A stretch of DNA of 64,000 nucleotides from an uncultured Gammaproteobacteria bacterium (GTDB lineage: Bacteria; Patescibacteriota; Microgenomatia; Daviesbacterales; UBA10151): NCBI GenBank assembly GCA_964500725.1, contig CAZCNP010000003.1:59476-123475 (forward strand), in the 5' to 3' direction. Within the stretch, counting starts at the first letter, position 1. Every line of letters begins with the position of its first letter. A program made the position numbers and the translations under genes. A model generated the notes under the pieces. It had not been told where the DNA came from and did no database searches. It was given only the letters and a program-made list of their open reading frames with translations. This document shows, one piece after another, positions 40,594 to 55,034 of this stretch.

Positions 40594-42192
40594 TCATTTA
40601 TTAACGAGCATCCAAACACCTTTAGAAGATCGTGGTGTGCCTTCAAAAAAGATTTTGTCTTCTCGTTTTAGCTCTTCCAGTAGATTAGAGATATTTTTGC
40701 TTGATAGCTCAAATTTGAACATTTCAGCGAAATCTCTTTTTGTAGCAGACTCAAAATTACTTAAGTGTTGTAATATTAATTCTTTATTTTTGATTTTAGG
40801 AAGCCCTTTTTTCTTGGTATACTTTACTTTTTGATTGGTATCTGTGTAATACTGTTTTGAAAGCATATATTTTGAAAATCCGATTTTTTCTATTAAACCG
40901 AGTTCCAATAATTGTTCTGTTATGGAGTTTGGTGCTAGTTGCTCATTACTCTTAATTTTATGAAGAATAAGTAGTTCTTCGTCATTAAAATCTTTATTTT
41001 TACTATCAGCAATTTTCAAAACATATTTTGCAAACTCCACGTCTTGAATATTGCCATCTAATTCTAGGACAACCCTTTCATCGGTGGAATTCTTATAATT
41101 TGGAGGATTTTTGCCTAGTGACAGTTGATTCTTATACATTAAATTTACTCCATTCCCAAATTGTTCCACGAGTTCGCATTTGAATAACATATCGGCAATT
41201 AGTTTATTACGAGGTTTCGATTCGGAAATAATATTATGTATGGTAATTCCTTCGGGGAAGCCACCAGGGCTTTTGATGACTATTTTAGTGGGGTATTGCA
41301 TTACAAAACTACTTTCGGAGAGTAAATAATCCCTATGAATAACTGCGTTGTTTAATGCTTCACGGATAGATTGTTCATCGAACGCCCTTCGTTCAATAAC
41401 CCGCATACCTAGAGGTATACTGACGTTTAAATTTCTTGCCTGGATTTTTTCCCAGATTGTATTGTAGTAAAGAAGGTATCCTCCTTTGAATATAACTGTA
41501 TCTTGATTTCTTATTTCAGCCTCGTTAACTTTATATCCAAATCTTACCTCTGCATAGGGCAGTGCTTTGCTTAAAGTAGCCTCTGTAGCTAATAAAATCA
41601 AGGCTGCAATTGTTAGCTTGCCATCCTGCATTAGTAGTAAGTCTTTAAGTAGCTGTTCATCAGAAAGAGTTGTTATATTAACCTCATATCTAGCAGATTG
41701 AATCAAAAGTTTTCTTAGTTCTAAGATAGCTTCAGGAGAAAGATCGGATATGTTAAAATCAGTCAGCGTTGTTGAAGAATAATCTTTATTAGTACTTTTG
41801 TAATACATCAATCGGTACTGGTATTCTTCTTGGGGCATAGACTTAGTACTAGCTCCAATTCTAATGTATGGTTTTTTACGAAAAGTATGATAGGGAGTAG
41901 AACTTTTATCAACTATTACTTTAATTACCTCAAGGCCACCTATATTTTCTTTAGTAACACTTAATATTTTTTGGGGTTCAAGGTTGTCAAAAACAAATTG
42001 AGCAACATCTATAAGAGTTTTCTCTCCAATTGTTTGTATGCCCACTACCTCTCCATCATTTCTAATCCCGAAGTAGAGTGTGCCTCCTTTTTGGTTTGTA
42101 AAACCACAAATAGTTTCTCCGCCTGCGTCTAATTCACTTAATGATACCTTGAATTCGATTATTTCTGATTCAGTAAATCCTATTTTAGCCAT
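40594..42192 (-). CDS. AlbA_2 (Schlafen-like) N-domain plus HATPase_c_4 C-domain protein (annotated elsewhere as 'RecG-like putative regulator')
   Basis: The N-terminus 'SEIIEFKVSLSE…ICGFTNQKGGTLYFGIRNDGEVVGI' is an AlbA_2 pattern. The C-region 'EALNNAVIHRDY' is the HATPase_c_4 hallmark. No helicase motifs were found. Confidence 0.7.
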   Translation of the reverse strand: MAKIGFTESEIIEFKVSLSELDAGGETICGFTNQKGGTLYFGIRNDGEVVGIQTIGEKTLIDVAQFVFDNLEPQKILSVTKENIGGLEVIKVIVDKSSTPYHTFRKKPYIRIGASTKSMPQEEYQYRLMYYKSTNKDYSSTTLTDFNISDLSPEAILELRKLLIQSARYEVNITTLSDEQLLKDLLLMQDGKLTIAALILLATEATLSKALPYAEVRFGYKVNEAEIRNQDTVIFKGGYLLYYNTIWEKIQARNLNVSIPLGMRVIERRAFDEQSIREALNNAVIHRDYLLSESSFVMQYPTKIVIKSPGGFPEGITIHNIISESKPRNKLIADMLFKCELVEQFGNGVNLMYKNQLSLGKNPPNYKNSTDERVVLELDGNIQDVEFAKYVLKIADSKNKDFNDEELLILHKIKSNEQLAPNSITEQLLELGLIEKIGFSKYMLSKQYYTDTNQKVKYTKKKGLPKIKNKELILQHLSNFESATKRDFAEMFKFELSSKNISNLLEELKREDKIFFEGTPRSSKGVWMLVNK

Positions 42193-42290: not shown

Positions 42291-43547
42291 TTATGTTCCT
42301 TCGTTCCAGGAGGCTAGGTATTTCTTTTGGTCTGCTGTTAGAGTATCAATGGAAATACCTAGTGACTCCAGTTTAAGTTTGGCAATCATATCATCAAGTT
42401 CTTGAGGAACAGTATAAACTCCTACTTCTAGTTTGCCTTTATTTTGGACTAAATATTCTGCTGCCAAAGCCTGGTTGGCAAAAGACATGTCCATTACATC
42501 AGGTGGATGGCCCTCTGCTGCACTCAAATTAATCAGTCTTCCTTCAGCCAGCACAAAGATCTTTTTTCCAGTATCCAGGGTAATTTCTTCTAAATGGTCT
42601 CTAAGAATTCTTCTATTTTTGGCAATTTTTACTAAACCTTCATAATCAAACTCCACATTAAAGTGTCCGGTATTGGAAACAACTGTTCCATCTTTCATTT
42701 TTTTGAAATGCTCAACTGAAATTACTGTTTTATTGCCTGTGGCTGTGCAAATTATATCTGCTACTTTAATAGCATCCTCAATTGGCATCACATCAAATCC
42801 ATCCATAACTGCTTCCAAAGCCTTTAGTGGGTCTACTTCTGTTACTATAACCTGTGATCCCATCCCTCTTGCTCTGGTAGCAAGCCCCCTGCCACACCAG
42901 CCATAGCCTACTACCACAAACTTTTTCCCAGCAAGTAAAACATTAGTAGCTCTTATTATTCCATCAATAGTAGATTGGCCAGTGCCATAACGGTTATCAA
43001 ACATATGTTTGGTATTACTATCATTTACAGCAATAACTGGAATTTTTAAGGTTCCATCTTTTAACATAGCCCTAAGCCTTATAACTCCTGTGGTGGTCTC
43101 CTCAGATGAGCCAATTACTTCAGTAAGTTGGGATTTTCTTTCAGTATGAAGCAAAGTTACCAGATCAGCCCCATCATCCATGGTAATTTGAGGTTTAGTA
43201 TCCATAACTTCATTTAAATGTTTATAGTAAGTGTCTTTATCTTCACCTTTGATGGCAAAGGTAGGAATATCAAAATCTTCAGATAAAGATGCTGCTACTT
43301 CATCTTGGGTAGACAGGGGATTGGAGGCACATAAAGCTAGATTTGCTCCCCCTTCTTTTAAAGCGATTAAAAGGTTTGCTGTTTCTGAGGTTACATGTAA
43401 ACAAGCACCAAGAGTAATGCCTTTGAGGGGTTTTTCTTTAGCAAACCTTTCTTTTATCAGATTTAACACCTTCATTTGAGACCCAGCCCACTCAATTCTT
43501 AACTTACCTTTTGGTGCTAAATTAGAATCTTTAATATCTGATTTCAT
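42291..43547 (-). CDS. ahcY: Adenosylhomocysteinase (S-adenosyl-L-homocysteine hydrolase)
   Basis: '[14 protein letters not shown]' and NAD-binding '[12 protein letters not shown]' are present. Length is 418 aa. Confidence 0.9.
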
Positions 43548-43569: not shown

Positions 43570-45123
43570 ATGACGTTAAGTATAATAGTTACTTTGTATC
43601 TTAAATGCAAGGATTTTGCTAAAATTGGTCTGCGCAACAAAAGTTATTGGGGTAAAAATATGAGTAACGACAAATTAATACAAGATATTTTATCTGTTCC
43701 TTCTGAATCTCGAACAATTGAATTCAAGCGTCTTGGTAGTAGAAACGAAGGAATTGATAAAACGCTCCAATCCATTGTGGCTATGGCTAATACAGATGGT
43801 GGAACGATAATTTTAGGAATAGATGACCCACAAAAAACAAAACTCAGAGGAATAGATAGAATTTTTGGAATAGAGGAAAATATAGAACTTTACGATGAAA
43901 TTGGTCGGTCAGTCAGAAAGATTTACCCTCCAATATCTGGAATTTGGCTGCCTGTTTTAGTAGATGCCGGGAATGAAAAAAGAATTGGGTTACTTTCGAT
44001 ACCAAAGGTTGGAGATGGATTTAGGTATTACGAAAACCATGTATGGATTCGTCTTGAGCGGGGTAATAAGATGCTCAATCCTCAAGATATTTTACATCTT
44101 GCATATGTGAAAGGATTTTCTAGATCAGATAGAGAACTCGTGGAAGTTGATTTTAGTCTGATAAAAACCGATTTTTACGAGGATTGGAGGAGGAAAAGAG
44201 GCATTGCTGAGAACAAAATTGAACTAATTTTGAAAAAAACAGGATTAGCTAGACAAAATGAAAATGGAAAGTTACTTCCAGCTAGAGCTGCCGTATTGCT
44301 ATTTGCTGAGTTTCCAAATGATCTTTTAGAGACAAAGTGTTCTGTGAGAGTTTTCCAAATTGAAGGAAATCGAGAGACAATTACTAAAGAAACATTAAAT
44401 TGGATAGGGACTCCAAAGAACATAAATGGCCCAATTGTAAAACAGATTACCGATGCCCATGAGTATGTTCTTGGGTTGTTGAAATCGGGTATGAGAGTGT
44501 CATCTGGATTTAAAACAACATACAGTATTCCTGAGCGTGCTGTTAAGGAAGCAATAACCAATGCGGTAATCCATCGTGATTATCATACAAAACGAGATAT
44601 TGAAATACGAATTTTTGAAGATCGTATAGAAATTGAAAGTCCTGGATTGTTACCGTTTAACATTACCCCTTCAAATATTGGAATCGAACGCTCACACCAG
44701 TACCGCAACGATTTATTGGTTAAACATCTGCGTGAATTTCCAGATCCGCCTAATCTTGATCAAAATGAAGGTGTGCGGGCAATGCGTCATACTATGAAGG
44801 TAGCAAATTTATACCCACCTATTTTTTGGACATATCCAGATCTTCAGGATGCTGTTAGGGTAATTTTATTAAACGAGCAGGCTCCAAATGAATGGGATAA
44901 AGTTTCTGATTATTTAATTAAAAATAAGTATATTACAAACACTGAAGCTCGAGGAATATTACATACGGAGGATACTGTAAAAGTTTCGAAGAGATTTAAT
45001 AGGTGGGTTAAGCAAGGACTTCTTACGAAAATTACCCCACGGACTGGAGCTAAACGCAATGTTCGATATAGGTTACCAACAGCCGATGAAAGAAGTTTAT
45101 TTACCAACGACAAAAGTAAATAA
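43570..45123 (+). CDS. AlbA_2 (Schlafen-like) plus HATPase_c_4 protein, paralog of 40594..42192
   Basis: 'ESRTIEFKRLGS…MANTDGGTIILGIDD' and 'EAITNAVIHRDY' are present. The probable true start is the Met at 43660 (MSNDKLIQ). Confidence 0.7.
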   Translation: MTLSIIVTLYLKCKDFAKIGLRNKSYWGKNMSNDKLIQDILSVPSESRTIEFKRLGSRNEGIDKTLQSIVAMANTDGGTIILGIDDPQKTKLRGIDRIFGIEENIELYDEIGRSVRKIYPPISGIWLPVLVDAGNEKRIGLLSIPKVGDGFRYYENHVWIRLERGNKMLNPQDILHLAYVKGFSRSDRELVEVDFSLIKTDFYEDWRRKRGIAENKIELILKKTGLARQNENGKLLPARAAVLLFAEFPNDLLETKCSVRVFQIEGNRETITKETLNWIGTPKNINGPIVKQITDAHEYVLGLLKSGMRVSSGFKTTYSIPERAVKEAITNAVIHRDYHTKRDIEIRIFEDRIEIESPGLLPFNITPSNIGIERSHQYRNDLLVKHLREFPDPPNLDQNEGVRAMRHTMKVANLYPPIFWTYPDLQDAVRVILLNEQAPNEWDKVSDYLIKNKYITNTEARGILHTEDTVKVSKRFNRWVKQGLLTKITPRTGAKRNVRYRLPTADERSLFTNDKSK

Positions 45124-45288: not shown

Positions 45289-46254
45289 TCATAGTTTTAA
45301 ATCTTCTCCAAAATTTTCTTTATACCTTTGGGCAAACTGTTCCAGTGTAAAAGTGTGATTAGTTGTACCATATTTTTCTACAGCAAAACAAGCAGCAACA
45401 GAACCCATTTGCCCACAAACCTTCAAATCTAAATTCTTACTGTATCCTGCTAAAAATCCACCCCTATAAGCATCTCCTGCTCCTGTTGGGTCTACTGCTT
45501 TGCTAACTTTACCAGCCTGGATTTGAATATTTTGGTCTTTGGTTTGAATCAAAGAACCCTTTTCTCCTAAAGTAGTAATTAATATATTAACTTGTTCTAA
45601 TAACTTCTCACTTGTCACTTGTAACTTATCGCTTAATAAAGCTATTTCATAATCATTGCCAACTAAAATTGTGGCTCCTTTTAACATATTTTGCAGATCT
45701 TCAGCAGATAAAGCAGGCAGCTGCATACCTGGATCTAGCATAAATGGGGTATTTGTTTTTTGGCACTGAGCGCAAAAATTAATCATAGCCTGAGGATTAT
45801 TAGGGGAAATTACTGCAAAATCACTTTCTGTTTCTTCTAAAGATAATTTATCAGTATAATCCATTGCTCCTGGGTAAAAGGCTGTAATTTGGTTATCAGA
45901 TTTATCAGTCATAATAAAAGCAGAGGAGGTTAAATTATTTTCAACAGTCTTGATGGCTGTGGTATCTACTCCTGTGGCTTGTAAAAACTTGGCATATTCT
46001 AAAAAATCCACCCCGACTGCCCCGATCACACCGACAGGAATTTTGAGTAAAGCTAAATTATAGGCAATATTGCCAGCAGTCCCACCTTTTTGTTTGCTTA
46101 AAGTATTAACTAAAAAAGATAAATTAATCTGATGGATCTTGTCTGGCATGATGTGCTCAGAAAACCTGCCTGGATAATCCATAATATGATCAAAAGCAAG
46201 TGAACCTGTAACTGTTATCATATAGTTAAAATATTGTTGGCGATAAAAATCCAT
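45289..46254 (-). CDS. PfkB-family carbohydrate/nucleoside kinase (possibly adenosine kinase)
   Basis: 'DPTGAGDAYRGGF' matches the PfkB motif (DTxGAGD) and there is an N-terminal GG dipeptide region. It lies next to ahcY. Confidence 0.75.
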   Translation of the reverse strand: MDFYRQQYFNYMITVTGSLAFDHIMDYPGRFSEHIMPDKIHQINLSFLVNTLSKQKGGTAGNIAYNLALLKIPVGVIGAVGVDFLEYAKFLQATGVDTTAIKTVENNLTSSAFIMTDKSDNQITAFYPGAMDYTDKLSLEETESDFAVISPNNPQAMINFCAQCQKTNTPFMLDPGMQLPALSAEDLQNMLKGATILVGNDYEIALLSDKLQVTSEKLLEQVNILITTLGEKGSLIQTKDQNIQIQAGKVSKAVDPTGAGDAYRGGFLAGYSKNLDLKVCGQMGSVAACFAVEKYGTTNHTFTLEQFAQRYKENFGEDLKL

Positions 46255-47407
46255 CTTTTTCTTGGAACTTTTTTGAAATTACAAAGGTTTGAGATATCCC
46301 AAGTTCGGATGATAATGCAGAAAGTTTGGAAAGATCTTGCGGGGTACCAGTTAATTTTATCTCAAAAGCAGTATCTTTATTTAGGATGGCATCAATTTCG
46401 GCAGTATTGCGGATGTTTAAAAAGCTCACTTTGCCATAACCTGAGAGTTGATTGATAACAGCATTTTCAAATACCTGGGCCTCACTTACTTTCCCAATAA
46501 CATTTAAAAGTCCTGTATCAGTAAAATAAACCTTTTTTCCTCCAGCTACAGCCCGATCAATACTTTTGCTAAATTTAGGAAGAAGCTTAATAAAAAACGT
46601 TCCTTGTAAGAATTCAAGAAATCTATATATTTTCATCCTGTCTATACCAAGTTCGCTTGACAGGCGGGTAACATCAAGCATTGATCCGGTCCGGGGTACC
46701 AGAAGCAAGATCATATCGCGGAGCTCCCGGATATCACTGTAATCTGATAAAATCTTAATATCTTTTTCAAAAAAAGATGCAAAGATATTTTTTAAAACCA
46801 TTATTTTAGTGTTTTTGTCTTCTGTGGTTACCACCTCTGGAAAACCGCCATATACAAGAAAGTCCTCATATTCCGCGGTATGCGCTTTATGAGTAAAAAT
46901 ACTATTTTTTTTGATTACGGTTTGTAAATTAGAATCTTGAGCCTCTTTTAGGGAAACAATATCTTTAAAGTAGAGATATTCCTGGAAACTGAGTGGAGGA
47001 AGCTCGTATAAGAATTTACGGCCAGATAATGATTCAGGAAATAGGTTTTTAAGATAAAAGCTGGAAGAGCCTGTTAGGTAAAATTTAACGCTGTGATGGT
47101 CAATAAGATATTTAATAACTTTAGTAATTTCAGGAAAATTTTGAATCTCATCAATAAATACTGATAATTTACCTGTTTTCCCATACATATTAACGAGCCT
47201 TTTATATATTACCTTTATATCCTCATCTTCGAATACTTTTTGATCAAGCGGATTATCAAAGTCAAACCACAATTTAGGTTCCTTTATCTCCTCAAAGATT
47301 TGACGCATGAGGGTGGTTTTCCCAACTTGACGCATGCCTGTTATTAAAAGAGCGTTTTTGTGGTTAAGATATTTTACTAATTCATAATACAGAAGCCTCT
47401 TTTTCAT
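46226..47407 (-). CDS. AAA+ ATPase of the AAA_14/DUF4143 family (second copy)
   Basis: 'LLITGMRQVGKTTLMRQI' Walker A and 'VFIDEIQ' Walker B are present. Length is 393 aa. Confidence 0.8.
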   Translation of the reverse strand: MKKRLLYYELVKYLNHKNALLITGMRQVGKTTLMRQIFEEIKEPKLWFDFDNPLDQKVFEDEDIKVIYKRLVNMYGKTGKLSVFIDEIQNFPEITKVIKYLIDHHSVKFYLTGSSSFYLKNLFPESLSGRKFLYELPPLSFQEYLYFKDIVSLKEAQDSNLQTVIKKNSIFTHKAHTAEYEDFLVYGGFPEVVTTEDKNTKIMVLKNIFASFFEKDIKILSDYSDIRELRDMILLLVPRTGSMLDVTRLSSELGIDRMKIYRFLEFLQGTFFIKLLPKFSKSIDRAVAGGKKVYFTDTGLLNVIGKVSEAQVFENAVINQLSGYGKVSFLNIRNTAEIDAILNKDTAFEIKLTGTPQDLSKLSALSSELGISQTFVISKKFQEKDGFLSPTIF

Positions 47408-47587: not shown

Positions 47588-50500
47588 ATGGCTGTGGAAC
47601 TAAGTGAAATATCGCCCCAACCCAGTATTAAATCTCCAATTAGCCTGGAGAGATGGAAAAATAGAGAACAACTTACCAATGAGTTCGGGAATACTAATAT
47701 CCCTGTACTTAAGCCTTTCAAATCAGTCAATGTTTCAGTAGAGACAGTTGATCAATCAGGCAACCCAGTAACAACTGTTCGTAACTTTGATACTCAAATA
47801 GAAAAAAGTTTTCAATATTACTCAAGAACCCGTAATTTAGAAGTTAATACGCCAAGAACTCAAATTTTACAAAACTTGGTAGATAAAATGACTAATGGTA
47901 CAGGTATTCAAACTAGGGTAATAATTATGAATAAGGGTAAAGAATCTAATGCCTTTGTTACCCCTGATGGAACTATATTTATTTCTCAAGCTATTATTAA
48001 TGACTTAGGCAGTTTAGATGAGATCGGAGCAATACTGGCACATGAAGTAGGACATCTTTATATCCGGACCTTTGAACATAAAGTCCAGGCAGGAAGCTTT
48101 TCAGAACATGTAACAGTGCCATGGGTGCATGAGGGAGTTTCCGATGCTTTAGCTTCTGAGTTTGGAGCGAAGGCTGATTTAAATACCTTCGCCTTTGGAC
48201 CAGCTATTGAGAAGATTTCAGGAGCAGATAGAGGATTTGAACATCAAGGAGGGTATATGCGTTCTTCGCAAAATGTGGCGCAACATTCACTAAAAAATTA
48301 TGAAACTAGTGCTAAAGCGGTTAAGCCAGTTCCAATACTGCTTCTGGGACGAATTAAACCAACTAATTTAGAAATTATCGGAGAAAGGTTGAAAAAACAT
48401 CAAGGTAGGCATCTGAAAGAAGCTCTCAGCAAGCTTCACCCTCAAGACCTGCAAAAAGTTTACCAGGATTTTCTGGGAACTCTAAATGTTGAAGAAAAAT
48501 ATCACACAGAACGTTACCAGCAAACATTTGAATTGCTAGATCAATTTAACCAACTTTTTAAAGGCAGACTAGCTCAGGCAGGCTATTCAGAAGGTCAAAT
48601 TCTGGCTTGGTTAACAACTGCTAGTCACTATCCTAGTTATGTTCGCCATAACCGCTATTTGTTTAAAACCTTACAGGATCCTATGACAGTGGCTCAGGTG
48701 ATGGTAGAAATAAGTGAAAACAGTGATCCTAAGCTTGGAGACCCTCGTATGGCTTTTTTTCGCAACATGTCAGAGGGTCTGTTTGGAGAAGCTGCTGTTT
48801 CTCCTCCCGTAGATACCTTCCTTGGATTACTTCGTGACTACCTTTATGATGAGTCCGCAAACCATCTTGACGGAAGAATACCGGTCAACCGTGACACCAT
48901 CCTGGAGATTGTAAGCAAACTGAGCGTTTTAAATTTATATTCTAATGAACAGAGTAATCTCGGTCATGTGCTGTTATCTTATATTGAGAATACATTTTAT
49001 AATACTGCAACCGAAGTAAAAGAGGAGATAGATGTTTCTCACATTACTGGTTTTTTGGATGAAGCAAAAGAAAGGGGAATTAAGCTTGAAGGATGGATAA
49101 CTGGCGGGCTAGTCGGTTTAGCTGGAGATCATCTTCATGCTTTAAAACGTGGCTCAGAAGAAGGTAGTATCGAGGTCCAAAACTATCAAAAAATAGTTGA
49201 TGTCTTAAAAGATTATTTTGGACTTTCCGAATGGCAACCATTTAGTGATATTAACCAGGAAATTGATGCCTTTTTTCAAAACTTGTCAAATGAGAGGGCT
49301 TATGCAGACTGGACAAACAGAATAAGCCTATTTTTTGGTAACTTGAGAAGGACTTTTAAACATCAGGAATTAGATGATGCCAGTAGAGAAAAGTTTATAA
49401 AATATTTATCTGATAAATTCGATAACTGGTCTGGTTTTAACAAGTACTCAGTGAGAGATATTTTAGAATCTAATCAGGTTATAGAAGCGAGGGGGCAAAA
49501 TATTGATCCAGAGGAGAATGCTGAATTAGCCAAACTACAGATCAAAACTGTCTTGGCTTTAATATTATTTCAGCAAGATGGCGATGAGTTCTACCGGTTT
49601 TTAGAAGATACAATAAATAGCAGCAGCGTTGATCTATCGTCTTTTTCTAAAGTAGGTCTGGCAAATCTTTGCAGTCCTTTATTTTTAGCTTTTAAAGATA
49701 GCATTCCTTATAATGGTTTCTGGGTGTATCACCCTGAGGCTCCTCATATGTCTGTTAGAGCATCTTTTGGTAATTTGAGAATTACCAACTTTGACCGGCT
49801 GGCAAATGTCAGTCTAGTTTCCGAATTTCTGGGAAGAGAGGAAGCAGTGGATCTTTCGTCTTGGGAGAAACTGAGAACATCTGTATTAGGTTTGGTTGGT
49901 AGATTAGGTGCAAATTCCTACGAAGCTTGTGATTTTCCTGATAGAAGTTCTAGTGCGTCACCAAAGGAGCAGTACGATATCTTCTCAGATAATGCTTTAG
50001 CTTTGATTCTTTTTTCCCAGCATCGCCAAGCATTTTTAAATTTGCTAAGTCAGGAAATTACAGAAGCAGATTTAAAGCCGCTTACTGAGGTTATTACTAC
50101 TTTATATCCGGCTGAAACTGGTAGGGATAATTTCTTACGGGCTATTCAAAAAAGATTGCTGCAGTCCAAAAATATCTCTTTGGAGGATAAAACTGAGTAT
50201 TTGCTGGATAATTTAGAAAGTTTGGGACCAGAAGGAGTTTGGATGGTGGCAGATCAAATTACTACCTTAGTTGACTATCAGAAATTTAGAGAAAAATTAG
50301 GAGATAAATTGGTTACTTATCTTGAAGGAGGAGGGGTAGTATTAAAAGCTATGGCAGCAGACTTGGTAACTAGTTTGTTAAGCGAGGGATTTGATAGAGT
50401 TATTCAAACTACTATTGATGACTCGGAGGTTGCCAAAAAAGGTTCTACTGAATTTGCAACACTATGGTTTTTGCGTAATCTAAATTTAGTAAATTTGGAA

Positions 50501-52393
50501 CACATTGGCCGTGCCAGGTATGATAGAGAGGGACAGAAATTTATTACTGGCGAAAAATCAAGAGGTGCTTTCCGAAGCATTAATGATGTATTTTCAATCC
50601 TAAGAAACTTCACTCCTACTCAGAGGTTGTTAACCCTTCATAAATCTTTGGCTGATGTGACGGGTGGGTTATCTTCTCCCAAGCGGCGTGAAAAATTAGC
50701 TGGTTTAGTAAGTAAAGCTTTAAAGCTTAAGCCTGGTTTTGTGGCAGATATTATTCAAACAACATGTTTAATAGGAGAACCAAGACTAATAAGTTTCCCT
50801 GCTGCAAATATGCTCTCGCCGATGCTTTTTCAAAACTTTGCTGTAGGTAATATTGATTATGCTGAGTTGCTGAAGTATCATTCATCTGAACTGGATGAAA
50901 AAACAGATGATGGATTTAGTAAACGTCTGGATTGGAAAGATTTTTTAACTGAACAGGAAGCAAGAAGAATTGCCAGTTCAACTACCAGACAGTTAACAGT
51001 TTTTGGAGCCAGGTTTATCAGCCAGCCTGATTCATACTTTTATACTAATGCTCAGCAATCAGATGGAATTTACTATCAGGTAAGAAATAATTTAGAAAGA
51101 CAATTGTTTGAAGAAACCAATGGGCATATTGTTGATGCAGAAGATGAAAATGGTCCTAAAGTTAATCCAGCGATTGATGCTATTATCCAAGGAGTTGAGA
51201 TGAGTGGAGCTTTAGGTGTTAGATCGCTTCAACTGGCTACTCAGCTTTTAAAATTTTCTCCTGAGGTAGAAAGAAGATTATCCAGAAGTTTAGATGCTAA
51301 TCCTGGCAGGGGAAAGCTAGCATTTTGGGAGAGATTATATGATGAGTCTCAGAAAGATCCAGCCTTATTAGCCTTATTAAGTACTTTAGAAATCGGGGAT
51401 TATTTAGGAGGGGGCAGTTTATTTACCACTTATGCTGCCACCAGGTTTGACGCCAACGGGAGAAGAAAAGAAATAGTAGTTAAGGCTTTAAATGCAAATG
51501 CTATTGGGTTTGTAGAGCAGTATTATTCTCTGGCTGCTGCAGTATTGTCACGGGTTGAAAGACATAGAGGTAATAGTTCTTTTGCTAAAGTAGCAAAGCT
51601 TCTATTAGGTGTTAGTAGGGATTGGTGTCAAGCAGATGTGGAAGATCCTGATTTTGTAACAGATGATGATAATTTTGCCTCTGTAATTCAGGCTTTTAAT
51701 ATGGCTGCTGGCAGAGAGGTTTTTCATGCTCCTCAAAGGGAATTTACCAGCAAAGATATAAAGGCAGAAGATTTAGCCAATGGTCCAACCTTAAACAAAT
51801 TACTAAAAAGTAATAGAGTTTCGCCTGAACAAAAAAAGGAGATAGTTGCTACTTTAATGAAATTTTTTGCCTTTCAGTTTAAGTTTGCTCTAACAGATTC
51901 TCAAGAGAGGCAATTCTACCAGTTCCATTCTGATCCTCATTTAGGTAATTATATTGCTCTAGATACAGAAAATCTGTCTTTATCAGTTATAGACAGGAGT
52001 ATGTATTTAAAGATACAACAAGAGGATGTAGATTTGTTGCAGGGTTTAGTTAGGGGAACAAATAGCACGAAATTTGTTAATCAGTTTATTACTAGAGTGC
52101 TGGATATAAGGGGTGTAACCAGTAAAGTACAAAGAAGGGCAATTTGGCTGCAGACTTGGTCTGCTTTAGGTAGAGAATTAGGCTCACAGGTTATCAATGG
52201 CAAGATTGATAACTTTTTACTACTTAGAACTTTATTTAATCAGTTAGACAGCTTTGGGTTAGATAAGTCAAAAGGGCCAAATGAACCAGCTTCTTCCGTG
52301 CCTTTAAATTTAAGATTAATGATTAGAAATATAGCGGCAATGAAAAAATTAGCTGAAAAATATGGTCTGAAACTAGAAGATTATATAACTTAA
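47588..52393 (+). CDS. Giant multidomain protein (1601 aa) with an N-terminal M48-like HExxH metalloprotease motif and a C-terminal ABC1/UbiB-like atypical kinase domain
   Basis: 'LGSLDEIGAILAHEVGHL' near aa 145-162 has the M48 motif form (…E..aVlAHElgH). 'LGGGSLFTTYAATRFDANGRRKEIVVKAL' near aa 1275 and 'FYQFHSDPHLGNYI' near aa 1445 match the UbiB/ABC1 ATP-binding and catalytic (ffHADpHPGNi) motifs. There are no TM helices. Confidence 0.65.
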   Translation: MAVELSEISPQPSIKSPISLERWKNREQLTNEFGNTNIPVLKPFKSVNVSVETVDQSGNPVTTVRNFDTQIEKSFQYYSRTRNLEVNTPRTQILQNLVDKMTNGTGIQTRVIIMNKGKESNAFVTPDGTIFISQAIINDLGSLDEIGAILAHEVGHLYIRTFEHKVQAGSFSEHVTVPWVHEGVSDALASEFGAKADLNTFAFGPAIEKISGADRGFEHQGGYMRSSQNVAQHSLKNYETSAKAVKPVPILLLGRIKPTNLEIIGERLKKHQGRHLKEALSKLHPQDLQKVYQDFLGTLNVEEKYHTERYQQTFELLDQFNQLFKGRLAQAGYSEGQILAWLTTASHYPSYVRHNRYLFKTLQDPMTVAQVMVEISENSDPKLGDPRMAFFRNMSEGLFGEAAVSPPVDTFLGLLRDYLYDESANHLDGRIPVNRDTILEIVSKLSVLNLYSNEQSNLGHVLLSYIENTFYNTATEVKEEIDVSHITGFLDEAKERGIKLEGWITGGLVGLAGDHLHALKRGSEEGSIEVQNYQKIVDVLKDYFGLSEWQPFSDINQEIDAFFQNLSNERAYADWTNRISLFFGNLRRTFKHQELDDASREKFIKYLSDKFDNWSGFNKYSVRDILESNQVIEARGQNIDPEENAELAKLQIKTVLALILFQQDGDEFYRFLEDTINSSSVDLSSFSKVGLANLCSPLFLAFKDSIPYNGFWVYHPEAPHMSVRASFGNLRITNFDRLANVSLVSEFLGREEAVDLSSWEKLRTSVLGLVGRLGANSYEACDFPDRSSSASPKEQYDIFSDNALALILFSQHRQAFLNLLSQEITEADLKPLTEVITTLYPAETGRDNFLRAIQKRLLQSKNISLEDKTEYLLDNLESLGPEGVWMVADQITTLVDYQKFREKLGDKLVTYLEGGGVVLKAMAADLVTSLLSEGFDRVIQTTIDDSEVAKKGSTEFATLWFLRNLNLVNLEHIGRARYDREGQKFITGEKSRGAFRSINDVFSILRNFTPTQRLLTLHKSLADVTGGLSSPKRREKLAGLVSKALKLKPGFVADIIQTTCLIGEPRLISFPAANMLSPMLFQNFAVGNIDYAELLKYHSSELDEKTDDGFSKRLDWKDFLTEQEARRIASSTTRQLTVFGARFISQPDSYFYTNAQQSDGIYYQVRNNLERQLFEETNGHIVDAEDENGPKVNPAIDAIIQGVEMSGALGVRSLQLATQLLKFSPEVERRLSRSLDANPGRGKLAFWERLYDESQKDPALLALLSTLEIGDYLGGGSLFTTYAATRFDANGRRKEIVVKALNANAIGFVEQYYSLAAAVLSRVERHRGNSSFAKVAKLLLGVSRDWCQADVEDPDFVTDDDNFASVIQAFNMAAGREVFHAPQREFTSKDIKAEDLANGPTLNKLLKSNRVSPEQKKEIVATLMKFFAFQFKFALTDSQERQFYQFHSDPHLGNYIALDTENLSLSVIDRSMYLKIQQEDVDLLQGLVRGTNSTKFVNQFITRVLDIRGVTSKVQRRAIWLQTWSALGRELGSQVINGKIDNFLLLRTLFNQLDSFGLDKSKGPNEPASSVPLNLRLMIRNIAAMKKLAEKYGLKLEDYIT

Positions 52394-52462: not shown

Positions 52463-52882
52463 TTAATTTGAATCTAATATTTGCTGGGGTTTTTTAACTA
52501 CAATTTCCTTGATTTTGGAAAATTCCTCATCAAAAGTTATTAAAATAGTATCTTTTGACAATTGGGAAGCAATCAAGCAGTCTGTAAATTTGATTCCATA
52601 TTTCTTATAATTTGCCAAAGCTTGCTTAGTATTAGTTTTTTCAACAATTGTGATGCCTCTGATTTCAAATGTGGAGTCTAAAATTTTGATTATTTCTTGG
52701 TAAGGGATCTTATAAACACTTTTTAGCACATAACTCATTTCCAAAAAGACAATCCCAGAGGTATAGACGCTAAATTGACCTGCCTCTATTTGAGATATTA
52801 GCTTATGACAATCTTCAAACTGTTGGTTATTATCTTCCAAAAATAATCTAAGCAGAAAATTAGTATCTAAAAATATTTTCAT
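52463..52882 (-). CDS. vapC: PIN-domain toxin VapC
   Basis: 'MKIFLDTNFLLRLF' gives the PIN acidic-residue pattern. Length is 139 aa and it overlaps the upstream antitoxin by 4 nt. Confidence 0.7.
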   Translation of the reverse strand: MKIFLDTNFLLRLFLEDNNQQFEDCHKLISQIEAGQFSVYTSGIVFLEMSYVLKSVYKIPYQEIIKILDSTFEIRGITIVEKTNTKQALANYKKYGIKFTDCLIASQLSKDTILITFDEEFSKIKEIVVKKPQQILDSN

Positions 52883-53118
52883 GCCTTGGAGTAATCAATA
52901 TAATCCCTAATTTTATCCAAGTTAATATTTTTGCCTTTGGCATACTTGGCATATTTTCCAGCCAATTTTAAAATCTTGCTTTCAACAGGGGTAAGCACCA
53001 GTTTATTTCCTTTAGTTTCAACTTCAAGTTGGGTGGGTTTTGTTAATTTCAAAGCTTTTCTGGCAGCTTTGGGGATATGGATTTGCCATTTGCTGGTAAT
53101 TGATATTGTTGTTTGCAT
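52879..53118 (-). CDS. vapB: VapB/AbrB-type antitoxin
   Basis: 79 aa. 'SKWQIHIPKAARKALKL' is a swapped-hairpin-like N-terminus. Confidence 0.55.
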   Translation of the reverse strand: MQTTISITSKWQIHIPKAARKALKLTKPTQLEVETKGNKLVLTPVESKILKLAGKYAKYAKGKNINLDKIRDYIDYSKA

Positions 53119-53164
53119 AACAATACTAATTATACCACAATACTATTATCTAAACAAGGTAATT

Positions 53165-53280
53165 TTACTGTGTTCCTACCAGGAAAACAGCTTGCCATGG
53201 TTTAATGCGAGTCTTCGAGCATCAAGACATGGCATGAATCTTACTGTGTTCCTACCAGGAAAACAGCTTGCCATGGTTTA
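53165..53280. repeat. Perfect 40-bp direct repeat (53165-53204 and 53241-53280) with a 36-bp spacer; the second copy is the 3' end of the VanW gene
   Basis: TTACTGTGTTCCTACCAGGAAAACAGCTTGCCATGGTTTA occurs twice. Copy 2 encodes the …PWQAVFLVGTQ* C-terminus of 53241..55034 on the minus strand. Confidence 0.9.
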
Positions 53281-55034
53281 TAATTAGACCTCCAGGTTTC
53301 ATTGGCAATGGTTTCCCCATTTTTAGTTACAGTTCTTTGAAAAGAAACAGAAGCTCCCCAGGCTGCCCAATCCACTTGTTTTACTGTGCCTTTGGGTAAA
53401 GTTGGATCATCTTGTCTTAACTCTGGAGGAGGTGGAGTTTGGTTTGCAATAACAGGTCTTGTCAAAGTTACTTCTCTGCCATCAGGGCTGCCATATAAAT
53501 CAACATATAAGGTGGTGCCAGAGGTATAAGCTTGAATTAAAATATGAGCTGGGGTATCATTTTTAAATTGAAAATCAACAGAAGGATAAAAAACTGTAGC
53601 ATCCAATCCAGGAGGAAAGCCTTGCTCATAGTAACCAACTCTATAGGCATGGGCAGTTCTTTTCATAACTGGCAGTCCGGCATTTAAAACTGCTCTAAAA
53701 AGAGTGGTAGAATCCTGGCAAACTCCCCCTCCATCATCTAATACTGTTCTTCCTTCTTTAATTACATATGCCTGTTTAAAGCCAGTAGCTGCAGAAATAT
53801 CTCCAACTGTTTGATTAAAAGAAAAAACTTGTCCAGGAGGTATTAAGACCCCATTAATTTTGGAGGCAGTTAAGGCAATATTGTAGATTCTGTTAGGAAT
53901 AGATCCGGCAAAGTTAGAAATACCCCTGCCTAAAAGTTCTTTGATACCTAAACTATTTACATCAGAAGTCTCAATTTTAGGTTTGACTGTTTCAACGGGC
54001 AAGGTAATGGCGTTACGCTCCAGGGCCTCGCCCTGCGAGGCTAAACTATCATTTAGGAGTTGATAAGTTTTATCTAAATCTAGTTTCCTGCCCATCTGTG
54101 ATGGTTTAAAGGCTGTAACTCTTTTGCTAGTAGGGTTAAATTCAAACAGGCCTTCCTGGACTGGTTGGTCTATTTCAGAAGCAATATTTTTAAGATAAGA
54201 GGCTGTTTGCTCTTTGTCTAAAAGTAGACCTTGCCCATCTGTTAGATTGAGTAGAGCTAGAAGCTGTTTTGCATCAATAGCCCAGCTTTTGTTACTGAAA
54301 ACTAATTTAATGGGATTTTGGTCGGTTTTTTCTAAAGCTTTTTTAGCTTGAGTAACATGACTAGTGGTTACTGTGGGGGCAACAACCTTAAGCGACAGCT
54401 GTGATTTATATTTGCCATATATGAGAAAATTAGTTACTGCTTTTTCAACTTGATTTTTGTTTAACTCTAGTCCATTGATTCCATCCACGATTTGGATATT
54501 AGCAGAGGCGCTGCTTTCAGGATTTGGTGTTTCAGAAAAGACAAGTTGAGCATTTTGAGCATCTTTCCCTACAGCATCTGCAATATTATTTAACTGTTTA
54601 TCTAAAGACAGAGTAATTTTAGGAGTGATTAGAGTAGGAAAAAGTAAAGTTTGCAATTCAGTTTTGATTTGGTTCCACAAAGCTGCTTGATGGGTATTAT
54701 CAAAAGCAGATTCTAAAGCAGAATAATCTAGTGATGCTGATGAGGTCGCAAGATCTATGGTGAAAGCTCCTTGCGCCCACTTAAAAGTTAACTTTTGCTG
54801 AGTCCTTTTTTGAAAAATAGAATCAACTTTTTTAATAGCCTGGCCTTCTGTTAAAAAGGAAATATTAATATCTCCAACAGAGGTTTGCGGGTAATATTTA
54901 TTACTTACAAAGTTTTGATAGGCGGTTATAATCAAGGCAAAAAGCAGGGCTGATAAAGCTGTGGGAAGAATCTTTGATTTTAGTCTCTCCATTATGGATA
55001 ATTTTTTGGCTTTAGCCATGCTGGTATTGTACAA
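53241..55034 (-). CDS. VanW-family protein (N-terminal TM anchor plus VanW domain)
   Basis: '…IPPGQVFSFNQTVGDISAATGFKQAYVI…GGGVCQDSTTLFRAVLNAGLPVMKRTAH' is the VanW domain signature. Length is 597 aa. Confidence 0.8.
   Translation of the reverse strand: MYNTSMAKAKKLSIMERLKSKILPTALSALLFALIITAYQNFVSNKYYPQTSVGDINISFLTEGQAIKKVDSIFQKRTQQKLTFKWAQGAFTIDLATSSASLDYSALESAFDNTHQAALWNQIKTELQTLLFPTLITPKITLSLDKQLNNIADAVGKDAQNAQLVFSETPNPESSASANIQIVDGINGLELNKNQVEKAVTNFLIYGKYKSQLSLKVVAPTVTTSHVTQAKKALEKTDQNPIKLVFSNKSWAIDAKQLLALLNLTDGQGLLLDKEQTASYLKNIASEIDQPVQEGLFEFNPTSKRVTAFKPSQMGRKLDLDKTYQLLNDSLASQGEALERNAITLPVETVKPKIETSDVNSLGIKELLGRGISNFAGSIPNRIYNIALTASKINGVLIPPGQVFSFNQTVGDISAATGFKQAYVIKEGRTVLDDGGGVCQDSTTLFRAVLNAGLPVMKRTAHAYRVGYYEQGFPPGLDATVFYPSVDFQFKNDTPAHILIQAYTSGTTLYVDLYGSPDGREVTLTRPVIANQTPPPPELRQDDPTLPKGTVKQVDWAAWGASVSFQRTVTKNGETIANETWRSNYKPWQAVFLVGTQ

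Follow-up and report, generated by a model that had tools for sequence, protein, structure and literature searches.

A predicted M48 protease and UbiB-like fusion protein conserved as a cassette in candidate phyla radiation bacteria

What might a bacterium with a small genome gain from a single protein of 1601 amino acids (aa) that begins like a zinc protease and ends like a kinase? This question is raised by a gene in a 64,000-nucleotide stretch of contig CAZCNP010000003.1 (assembly GCA_964500725.1; the whole stretch is hereafter called the window), deposited as an uncultured gammaproteobacterium. An earlier sequence-only reading had noticed in its product an M48/HtpX-form peptidase motif near residue 150 and a UbiB/ABC1-type lysine region and catalytic loop near the C-terminus, had suspected a host resembling the candidate phyla radiation (CPR), and had regarded a soluble protease–kinase fusion as an undescribed architecture. 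We conclude that the product is almost certainly a soluble enzyme of three parts, an N-terminal M48 protease, an α-helical solenoid of about 950 residues and a C-terminal UbiB/ABC1-like kinase-fold domain, with both activities being predicted. In keeping with the earlier suspicion, a full-text literature search found no description of this architecture.

Two predicted catalytic ends and a helical middle

The start codon of the giant gene (Table 1) is backed by an N-terminus shared with a homolog ('MAVELSEISP' here, 'MAVNVTEFSP' in P0002). The 1601-aa open reading frame (ORF) and the three motifs previously quoted from it are present where they had been placed: LGSLDEIGAILAHEVGHL spans residues 140–157 and holds H152, E153 and H156 of the HExxH motif, LGGGSLFTTYAATRFDANGRRKEIVVKAL spans residues 1273–1301 and holds K1299, and FYQFHSDPHLGNYI spans residues 1443–1456 and holds D1449 and N1454. 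The protein has 16 full-length homologs at 27–49% identity, and residue conservation was counted on 118 full-length representatives (<=50% identity). The absence of transmembrane (TM) helices holds as well. Neither a TM helix nor a signal peptide was found in the 1601-aa protein, in which the highest 19-residue Kyte-Doolittle mean is 1.28, or in any of the 16 homologs, in which the maximum is <=1.74; a signal-peptide-like N-terminus occurs in none of the 118 representatives and a TM-like segment in one. Since it lacks both features, the protein is presumably cytoplasmic.

The N-terminal end was recognized by Pfam M48 (PF01435) at 40.2 bits against a cut-off of 20.3 (E 4e-10), over profile positions 6–79 of 186 only, and all 17 family members match this profile; together with a confident structural match this assigns the domain to the M48 fold and bears out the motif seen earlier. 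The predicted active site, consisting of H152, E153, H156 and E182, is complete. Placement of the third zinc ligand came from a local hmmsearch match to Escherichia coli BepA and from an alignment with 3c37, and E182 and D186 are kept in 117 and 116 of the 118 representatives, respectively. In the alignment of 17 members, H152, E153, H156, H181, E182 and D186 are among the invariant columns. E182 lies just 26 residues past H156, about 35 fewer than in BepA, and an hhalign comparison of the N-terminal family profile with BepA spans 72 columns only. Further downstream, H219 (109/118) and R225 (115/118) show BepA-like spacing in a register that no alignment tool placed; on motif spacing alone they are candidate equivalents of the zinc-capping H246 and of R252 in BepA. 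An identical protein at NCBI is annotated 'M48 family metalloprotease [Candidatus Daviesbacteria bacterium]', so that public annotation covers the protease alone and the guess of a CPR-like organism was right.

For the C-terminal end, three independent tests, namely structure, profile alignment and residue conservation, agree on a UbiB/ABC1-like identity. An AlphaFold2 model of residues 1170–1601 (predicted local distance difference test score 82.7; predicted template modelling score 0.81) retrieved UbiB-family structures first when it was compared with the PDB by Foldseek: the top 12 matches are COQ8A/ADCK3, Mycobacterium smegmatis MSMEG_1954 and M. tuberculosis Rv3197 (E 8e-10 to 3e-6, about 360–450 columns), and ordinary kinases first appear at E 4e-5 with lower template modelling scores. 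An hhalign comparison of the family profile with E. coli UbiB gave 88% probability (E 3e-6, 260 columns) with all hallmarks in register, supporting the lysine region and catalytic loop that had been proposed. The Pfam check suggested earlier was thus borne out for one end of the protein and not for the other, since Pfam ABC1 (PF03109) scores the 1601-aa protein at 12.7 bits, under its cut-off of 22.9 (E 0.07). The same profile matches 13 of the 17 family members at E<=1, with a best E of 1e-7. A search of PDB sequences with the C-terminal family profile missed COQ8A and returned just a weak match to TYRO3 in the Gly-loop/Lys region (E 0.44).

The individual hallmarks of the UbiB family are partly retained and partly replaced. 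In the hhalign comparison, 'GALGVRSLQL..Q' aligns to 'GPVWIKFGQM' of E. coli UbiB, so that the invariant Q of the KxGQ motif is present as Q1215 (118/118), and the invariant K and G are replaced by R and L; the Lys position is R in 112 representatives and K in 5. Helices lie ahead of the N-lobe strands in the AlphaFold2 model, as a KxGQ-type extension. Instead of the Ala-rich loop of UbiB ('A-A-A-S' or 'S-A-S'), the family has a Gly-rich GGGS, with G1276 in 117 and S1277 in 118 of the representatives. Catalytic-loop residues D1449 and N1454 are found in 116/118 and 118/118, and K1299, D1449, N1454 and D1469 are invariant or nearly so in the 17-member alignment. At the position of K1299, 100 representatives have K and 18 have R, as in the 'VVIRM' of P0014, with the other catalytic residues intact; an Arg at the position of the ATP-binding Lys beside an otherwise intact catalytic set is unusual among kinase-fold enzymes. 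There is no activation loop, since VIDRSMYLKIQQEDVDLLQ aligns without insertion to GIDCGIVGSLNKEDKRYLA of E. coli UbiB, and in the model D1469 is followed by a short strand (about 1473–1477) and then a helix from about residue 1478. Finally, neither the membrane anchor of UbiB nor its quinone context was seen here: the protein has no TM helix, and no quinone genes are among its window neighbours. Taken over both ends, the catalytic residues that the sequence-only reading had proposed to check (HExxH and a third ligand; kinase K, D and N) are intact, at 116–118 of 118 representatives, with K1299 being K or R.

Because the Ala-rich loop and the K and G of KxGQ are changed, and because the family profile misses canonical UbiB, we call the C-terminal domain UbiB-like: the UbiB family is its closest relative, and it is a separate clade, not a member in the Pfam sense. 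Since the domain keeps the invariant Q together with every metal and phosphate ligand, and since its loop is naturally Gly-rich, it is very likely a competent module that binds and hydrolyzes ATP or autophosphorylates.

Between the two ends lies the helical solenoid. Residues 300–800 form its variable stretch, and the structural comparison of this middle region covered the PDB only. Its last part, a conserved pre-kinase block of about 370 aa, goes with the kinase-like domain across the core family. The sequence-only reading had allowed for chance motifs in a repeat protein. This artefact is rejected, given the conservation of the motif residues and the absence of repeats: self-BLASTP of the 1601-aa protein returned the self-hit alone, and Tandem Repeats Finder detected just two trivial two-copy micro-repeats of 16–19 bp in the DNA.

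A cassette kept at near-constant length

An exhaustive search with the C-terminal domain profile against 1.84 billion representative proteins yielded 530 matches (E<=1e-3, counted as 50%-identity representatives), of which 202 reach E<=1e-30. All 150 of the matches that were listed belong to the cassette family, and a total of 530 is far too few to include canonical UbiB. The listed representatives are nearly all 1500–1700 aa long with the kinase-like domain at the C-terminus; the shorter ones mostly begin or stop inside the domain and, where checked, lie on contigs of a few kb, so that they look like fragments. A second homolog search with the C-terminal profile added two fragments only. Judged by these sequences, the cassette of M48 domain, solenoid and UbiB-like domain is an evolutionary unit, of near-constant length in hundreds of lineages and with both predicted active sites strongly constrained. 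No AAA or P-loop family was detected by Pfam in any of the 17 members.

The second context in which the cassette occurs is a set of eight outliers of 2–6.5 thousand aa that carry the kinase-like domain. With the full-length profile, an M48 block was found upstream of this domain in six of the eight (P0145, P0147, P0150, P0151, P0154 and P0158), and the pre-kinase block was also matched in four of these six (P0145, P0147, P0150 and P0154), always in the same order. P0145 measures 3306 aa, P0147 5745 aa, P0158 6217 aa and P0151 6575 aa; P0147, P0150 and P0151 begin with signal-peptide-like sequences, and P0135 and P0147 are named Candidatus Omnitrophota. A Pfam scan of the giant outliers other than P0147 identified HATPase_c in P0145, M48 in P0154 and a sub-threshold ABC1 in P0150. 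Two of these proteins carry further features. P0147 has additional HExxH motifs ('HEAFH', 'HEMGH' and 'HELDH') and a JAMM-like HNHPGEGLVPSPED. P0145 comprises an M48 block (388–674), a kinase-like block (1280–1910) and then a histidine-kinase-type HATPase_c domain (2721–2823), and therefore two ATP-binding folds.

As far as the present data show, the core family occurs widely among CPR bacteria, and distant versions are embedded in proteins of Omnitrophota. A contig scan seeded by the 1601-aa protein alone recovered no relative. When a single genome of each GTDB species was scanned by pattern, at least 10 family loci were recovered, a number that is an undercount because the scan worked through the M48 pattern of the full alignment. 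These loci belong to Curtissbacteria, Gracilibacteria, Nomurabacteria, Moraniibacteriota, one further bacterium and five metagenome-assembled genomes (MAGs) labelled 'uncultured Gammaproteobacteria' or 'Ectothiorhodospiraceae'. The gammaproteobacterial labels of the last five (L005, L006, L008, L009 and L010) look wrong. The loci so labelled have 36–44% GC, and the cysteinyl-tRNA synthetase (CysRS) at one of them (CAZWXQ010000002.1; L009:4286-5737) is 37% identical to E. coli CysS and 64–68% identical to Patescibacteria/Levybacteria proteins, which renders the label doubtful, with the CysRS comparison coming from this one locus; an AAA_2 gene at a second 'Gammaproteobacteria' locus is not a ClpX orthologue and hence is uninformative for taxonomy. 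Two further loci (L002 and L003) both come from GCA_034680565.1, an assembly of more than 30,000 contigs, and encode P0010 and P0015, which each share about 30% identity with the giant protein. These are either paralogs or the products of two organisms sharing one bin or metagenome, and their neighbours (squalene-epoxidase-like, arginase and GH26 genes) look richer than a typical CPR gene set. Searches of phages and plasmids gave no match to the family.

A possible ATP-regulated protease and its alternatives

We favor the reading that the protein is an ATP-gated or ATP-regulated protease, and we put its probability at roughly one in two. That the protease and the kinase-like domain are functionally coupled is, on balance, probable. 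The specific gating mechanism is tentative and argued from analogy. In this mechanism the two catalytic ends would work jointly within one polypeptide: the UbiB-like domain would bind and hydrolyze ATP, or autophosphorylate, in a manner analogous to the long-range gating of the ligand pocket in COQ8, and this ATP event would control access of solenoid-held substrates to the M48 site. The logic would be like that of FtsH or Lon, powered by a kinase fold and not by an AAA+ ring. The strongest evidence that the two enzymes act together is that both are kept as a unit, in two contrasting protein contexts, with their active sites intact. An ATP-regulated protease is the most economical explanation because a solenoid large enough for substrates links the ATP module to an intact protease, and the lack of an operon partner that might supply a missing function was counted in its favor. 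It would be a bolder step, and one we think unlikely to hold, to see in the cassette an energy-dependent protease of a new class, with a UbiB-type fold that uses ATP to gate an M48 protease through an arm of some 950 residues.

The analogy draws on work on UbiB proteins. COQ8 is active as an ATPase and not as a protein kinase (bioRxiv 10.1101/149823; PMC8956952), and the Q of its KxGQ motif holds a putative hydrolytic water (bioRxiv 10.1101/149823). The Gly-rich GGGS loop of the family resembles the COQ8A A339G loop mutant, in which basal ATPase activity and autophosphorylation in cis are both raised (bioRxiv 10.1101/149823). Entry to the ligand pocket of COQ8 is gated by ATP hydrolysis via a long-range conformational change (bioRxiv 10.64898/2026.02.03.703536), and Rv3197 is a soluble UbiB-like ATPase (PMC6208485). 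In addition, plastoglobules and cyanoglobules harbor both the M48 protease PGM48 and ABC1K kinases, which are co-expressed (PMC12223511; PMC8956952; bioRxiv 10.1101/2021.02.05.430006).

Several points weigh against an ATP-regulated protease. A fusion implies a shared process and does not thereby require allosteric gating, and the kinase domain could act independently of the protease, on a substrate that it phosphorylates or on a small hydrophobic ligand. For an obligate phosphotransferase, the Arg that replaces K1299 in 18 of the 118 representatives is unusual. The parallel with plastoglobules is one of co-localization only, with close orthology to PGM48 or ABC1K being unlikely. Finally, the signal peptides on some giant relatives fit poorly with a purely cytoplasmic housekeeping cassette.

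The last point leads to an alternative that we consider unlikely: the cassette could be an effector that is exported or injected into a host or prey cell, where host ATP would drive the kinase-like domain and the protease would cleave host targets. CPR bacteria are episymbionts, a lifestyle that suits such a role, and an ATP-dependent domain on an exported protein is sensible only inside another cell. The cassettes placed behind signal-peptide-like N-termini in the three distant giants fit this picture, as does P0147, whose added HExxH and JAMM-like motifs give it a multi-enzyme layout as in secreted toxins; the Omnitrophota names of P0135 and P0147 were counted on the same side. So was the lack of a conserved neighbourhood, the gene sitting here among Schlafen/AlbA_2, AAA_14/DUF4143 and PIN genes. 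However, signal peptides are absent from all 118 core-family representatives, secretion-system genes are adjacent at no locus examined, and phage and plasmid matches are absent. Near-constant length and 98–100% conservation of active-site residues over several CPR lineages look like housekeeping constraint, not the diversification usual for effectors.

Less probable still is a machine for lipids or other hydrophobic ligands, akin to a fused ABC1K and PGM48, in which the UbiB-like domain would use ATP to extract or chaperone prenyl-type molecules at a membrane or lipid body, the role proposed for COQ8, Cqd and ABC1K proteins, and the M48 domain would process associated proteins. Such an activity would be relevant to CPR cells, which must scavenge lipids. 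The UbiB fold, the KxGQ-type lid and the invariant Q are all kept, COQ8 pulls coenzyme Q precursors from membranes (bioRxiv 10.64898/2026.02.03.703536), Rv3197 binds macrolides (PMC6208485), and the co-residence and co-expression of ABC1K and M48 proteins on plastoglobules and cyanoglobules (PMC12223511; bioRxiv 10.1101/2021.02.05.430006) point in the same direction. Conversely, the protein has no TM segment, and no membrane-binding patch was identified, in a check that did not extend to the basic K/R residues of the membrane-binding helices in COQ8. Two UbiB features, the A-rich loop and the K of KxGQ, are altered, and comparable changes in COQ8 lead away from its physiological ATPase mode (10.1101/149823); in addition, lipid-metabolism genes are not consistently adjacent.

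The flanks of the gene might suggest an anti-phage or abortive-infection system made of one protein, whose kinase-like domain would sense infection and unleash the protease, since the window holds two Schlafen AlbA_2/HATPase_c_4 genes, an AAA_14/DUF4143 ATPase and a PIN gene around it. Defence systems also include large single proteins that bear a protease. We nevertheless regard this explanation as highly improbable: PADLOC-DB defence models gave no match (0 families at E<=1), the flanks are not conserved and are replaced elsewhere by housekeeping genes (CysRS, RecR, phosphoribosyl pyrophosphate (PRPP) synthetase and RecJ), the family is absent from the phages and plasmids searched, and its high conservation is unlike that of fast-turnover defence genes. 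The notion of a structural helical protein in which either domain, or both, is a dead relic or a chance motif could appeal to the sub-threshold ABC1 score and to the partial M48 match. It is effectively refuted by hhalign, by confident structural matches for both domains and by 98–100% conservation of the catalytic residues of both in 118 diverged representatives, and the absence of repeats also speaks against it.

Genomic setting and relation to known systems

The giant gene is a stand-alone unit, as a 180-bp intergenic region separates it upstream from the divergent AAA_14/DUF4143 gene and the PIN gene is convergent at its 3' end (Table 1). Promoter and terminator scans returned background levels and were uninformative. 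The window neighbours further include two Schlafen-AlbA_2/HATPase_c_4 genes, an S-adenosylhomocysteine hydrolase, a PfkB and a VanW gene, and no antitoxin partner of >=80 aa was seen for the PIN gene. Other family loci hold a PAP2 gene and a CHASE-PAS histidine kinase, peptidase M19 and a CAP-domain protein, a major facilitator superfamily (MFS) transporter, genes for CysRS, RecR and PRPP synthetase, or genes for RecJ and RNase H. At no locus examined was a conserved operon partner or a secretion system found, and the neighbours differ throughout. The comparison of distribution and neighbourhood proposed earlier therefore gave a divided answer, with a cassette that is widespread in CPR and neighbour genes that are not conserved. 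In two unrelated CPR loci (here and at L013:363-1367) a PfkB sugar kinase gene is found upstream, no further than about 5 kb from the cassette gene; VanW-like genes occur downstream in two loci and MFS transporters near three, and these recurrences may be coincidence. A conserved operon was rejected, since PfkB, VanW and MFS genes are each near two or three loci and inconsistently so.

Table 1. Features of the giant gene and of its surroundings, in window coordinates; functional assignments of residues are predicted.
Feature	Position	Strand	Residues	Remarks
Giant gene	47588..52393	+	1601	Single ATG-start ORF, 1601 codons plus stop
M48 zinc-metalloprotease domain	47729..48322	+	~48–245	α/β head with catalytic helices
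HEVGH	48041..48055	+	H152/E153/H156	Two zinc ligands and catalytic base (predicted); invariant in 17/17 members and 117/118 representatives
E182-x3-D186 ('HEGVSD')	48131..48145	+	182–186	Predicted third zinc ligand; aligns with 'E-nqA-D' of 3c37 and E201/D205 of E. coli BepA
H219-x5-R225 ('HQGGYMR')	48242..48262	+	219–225	Candidate M48 'T-H-P-x4-R' motif (BepA H246...R252), from motif spacing
α-helical solenoid/scaffold	48335..51187	+	~250–1200	No catalytic domain detected
Conserved pre-kinase helical block	49985..51097	+	~800–1170	Raised column conservation (0.40–0.56)
UbiB/ABC1-like atypical kinase-fold domain	51188..52390	+	~1201–1601	Includes KxGQ-type N-terminal extension
R1212-S-L-Q1215	51221..51232	+	1212–1215	Counterpart of UbiB K-x-G-Q; in register with 'IKFGQ' of E. 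coli UbiB
G1274-G-G-S1277	51407..51418	+	1274–1277	Predicted nucleotide-binding loop; aligned to 'LASASI' of UbiB
K1299 ('VVKAL')	51482..51484	+	1299	Predicted ATP-binding lysine; aligned to K of UbiB 'VVIKV'
H1447-S-D1449-P-H-L-G-N1454	51926..51949	+	1447–1454	Predicted catalytic loop; aligned to UbiB 'HADMHPGN'
D1469 ('IDRS')	51992..51994	+	1469	Predicted metal-binding Asp at DFG position; aligned to UbiB 'IDCG' without insertion; D in 117/118
Schlafen AlbA_2 + HATPase_c_4 paralog	40594-42192	-
S-adenosylhomocysteine hydrolase gene	42291-43547			Flanked by the two Schlafen AlbA_2 + HATPase_c_4 paralogs, a few kb upstream of the giant gene
Schlafen AlbA_2 + HATPase_c_4 paralog	43570-45123	+
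PfkB-family sugar kinase	45289-46254	-
AAA_14/DUF4143 ATPase	46226-47407	-		Weak nSTAND matches; immediate neighbour
PIN-domain (VapC-like) gene	52463-52882	-		Immediate neighbour
118-aa ORF	52931-53287	+		No Pfam match; adjoins PIN gene
Other large ORF, 1225 aa	5446-9123	-
Other large ORF, 975 aa	27720-30647	+
Other large ORF, 918 aa	59275-62031	+

Among known systems, the UbiB/ABC1/ADCK proteins (COQ8A/ADCK3, E. coli UbiB, Rv3197/MABP-1, MSMEG_1954 and the plant ABC1Ks) are closest to the C-terminal end. The likeness extends to the bilobal kinase fold with its N-terminal helical KxGQ-type extension, to the invariant Q, the Lys, the HxDxxxxN loop and the DFG-position Asp, all in register, and to the lack of an activation loop. 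In the UbiB family an Ala-rich loop, the A-triad 'AAAS', replaces the Gly-rich loop of ordinary kinases, and an activation loop is likewise missing (PMC8956952); Rv3197 is also soluble, without TM helices (PMC6208485). The giant protein differs in that its domain is preceded by the helical block of about 370 aa and fused to a protease, carries a GGGS loop and has R and L in KxGQ, and in that its host is a CPR bacterium. To our knowledge, CPR bacteria generally do without quinone biosynthesis. The role of UbiB/ABC1 proteins is debated, with kinase, ATPase and lipid chaperone all under discussion, and work on them is hampered by membrane-bound members and uncertain partners. Here, by contrast, is a family that is soluble and self-contained, with the UbiB-like domain permanently tied to its M48 partner, and that predicts control of proteolysis by ATP or phosphorylation. 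If this were true, the fusion would show UbiB proteins doing ATP-driven conformational work on a partner enzyme and would offer a soluble model system. For CPR biology, it is a large conserved enzyme to which small genomes devote 4.8 kb.

At the N-terminal end, the nearest comparisons are with the soluble M48 proteins BepA (YfgC) and Geobacter Q74D82 (PDB 3c37). BepA is periplasmic, whereas the giant protein has no signal peptide; the segment from HExxH to the Glu measures 61 residues in BepA versus 26 here; and where BepA has a tetratricopeptide repeat domain of about 200 residues, the helices of the giant protein continue for about 950 residues and end in the kinase-fold domain. The pairing of the two families is echoed by plastoglobules and cyanoglobules, where ABC1K and PGM48 share a compartment and PGM48 is co-expressed with ABC1K7 and ABC1K3, a co-residence that is itself unexplained. 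Those are separate, lipid-droplet-bound proteins of photosynthetic organisms, and close orthology to the ends of the giant protein is unlikely; the fusion is what a 'Rosetta-stone' link between the ABC1K and M48 families would look like. FtsH, which joins AAA+ to an M41 HExxH domain, and Lon likewise combine an ATP module and a protease on one polypeptide, and FtsH is also an HExxH zinc enzyme. The analogy is one of logic only, as the giant protein has a protein-kinase-like fold and no AAA+ or P-loop module. Both folds are already known. The novelty lies in the family, which is large, conserved and of an undescribed architecture, and in its divergent UbiB-like clade, from which the A-rich loop is missing.

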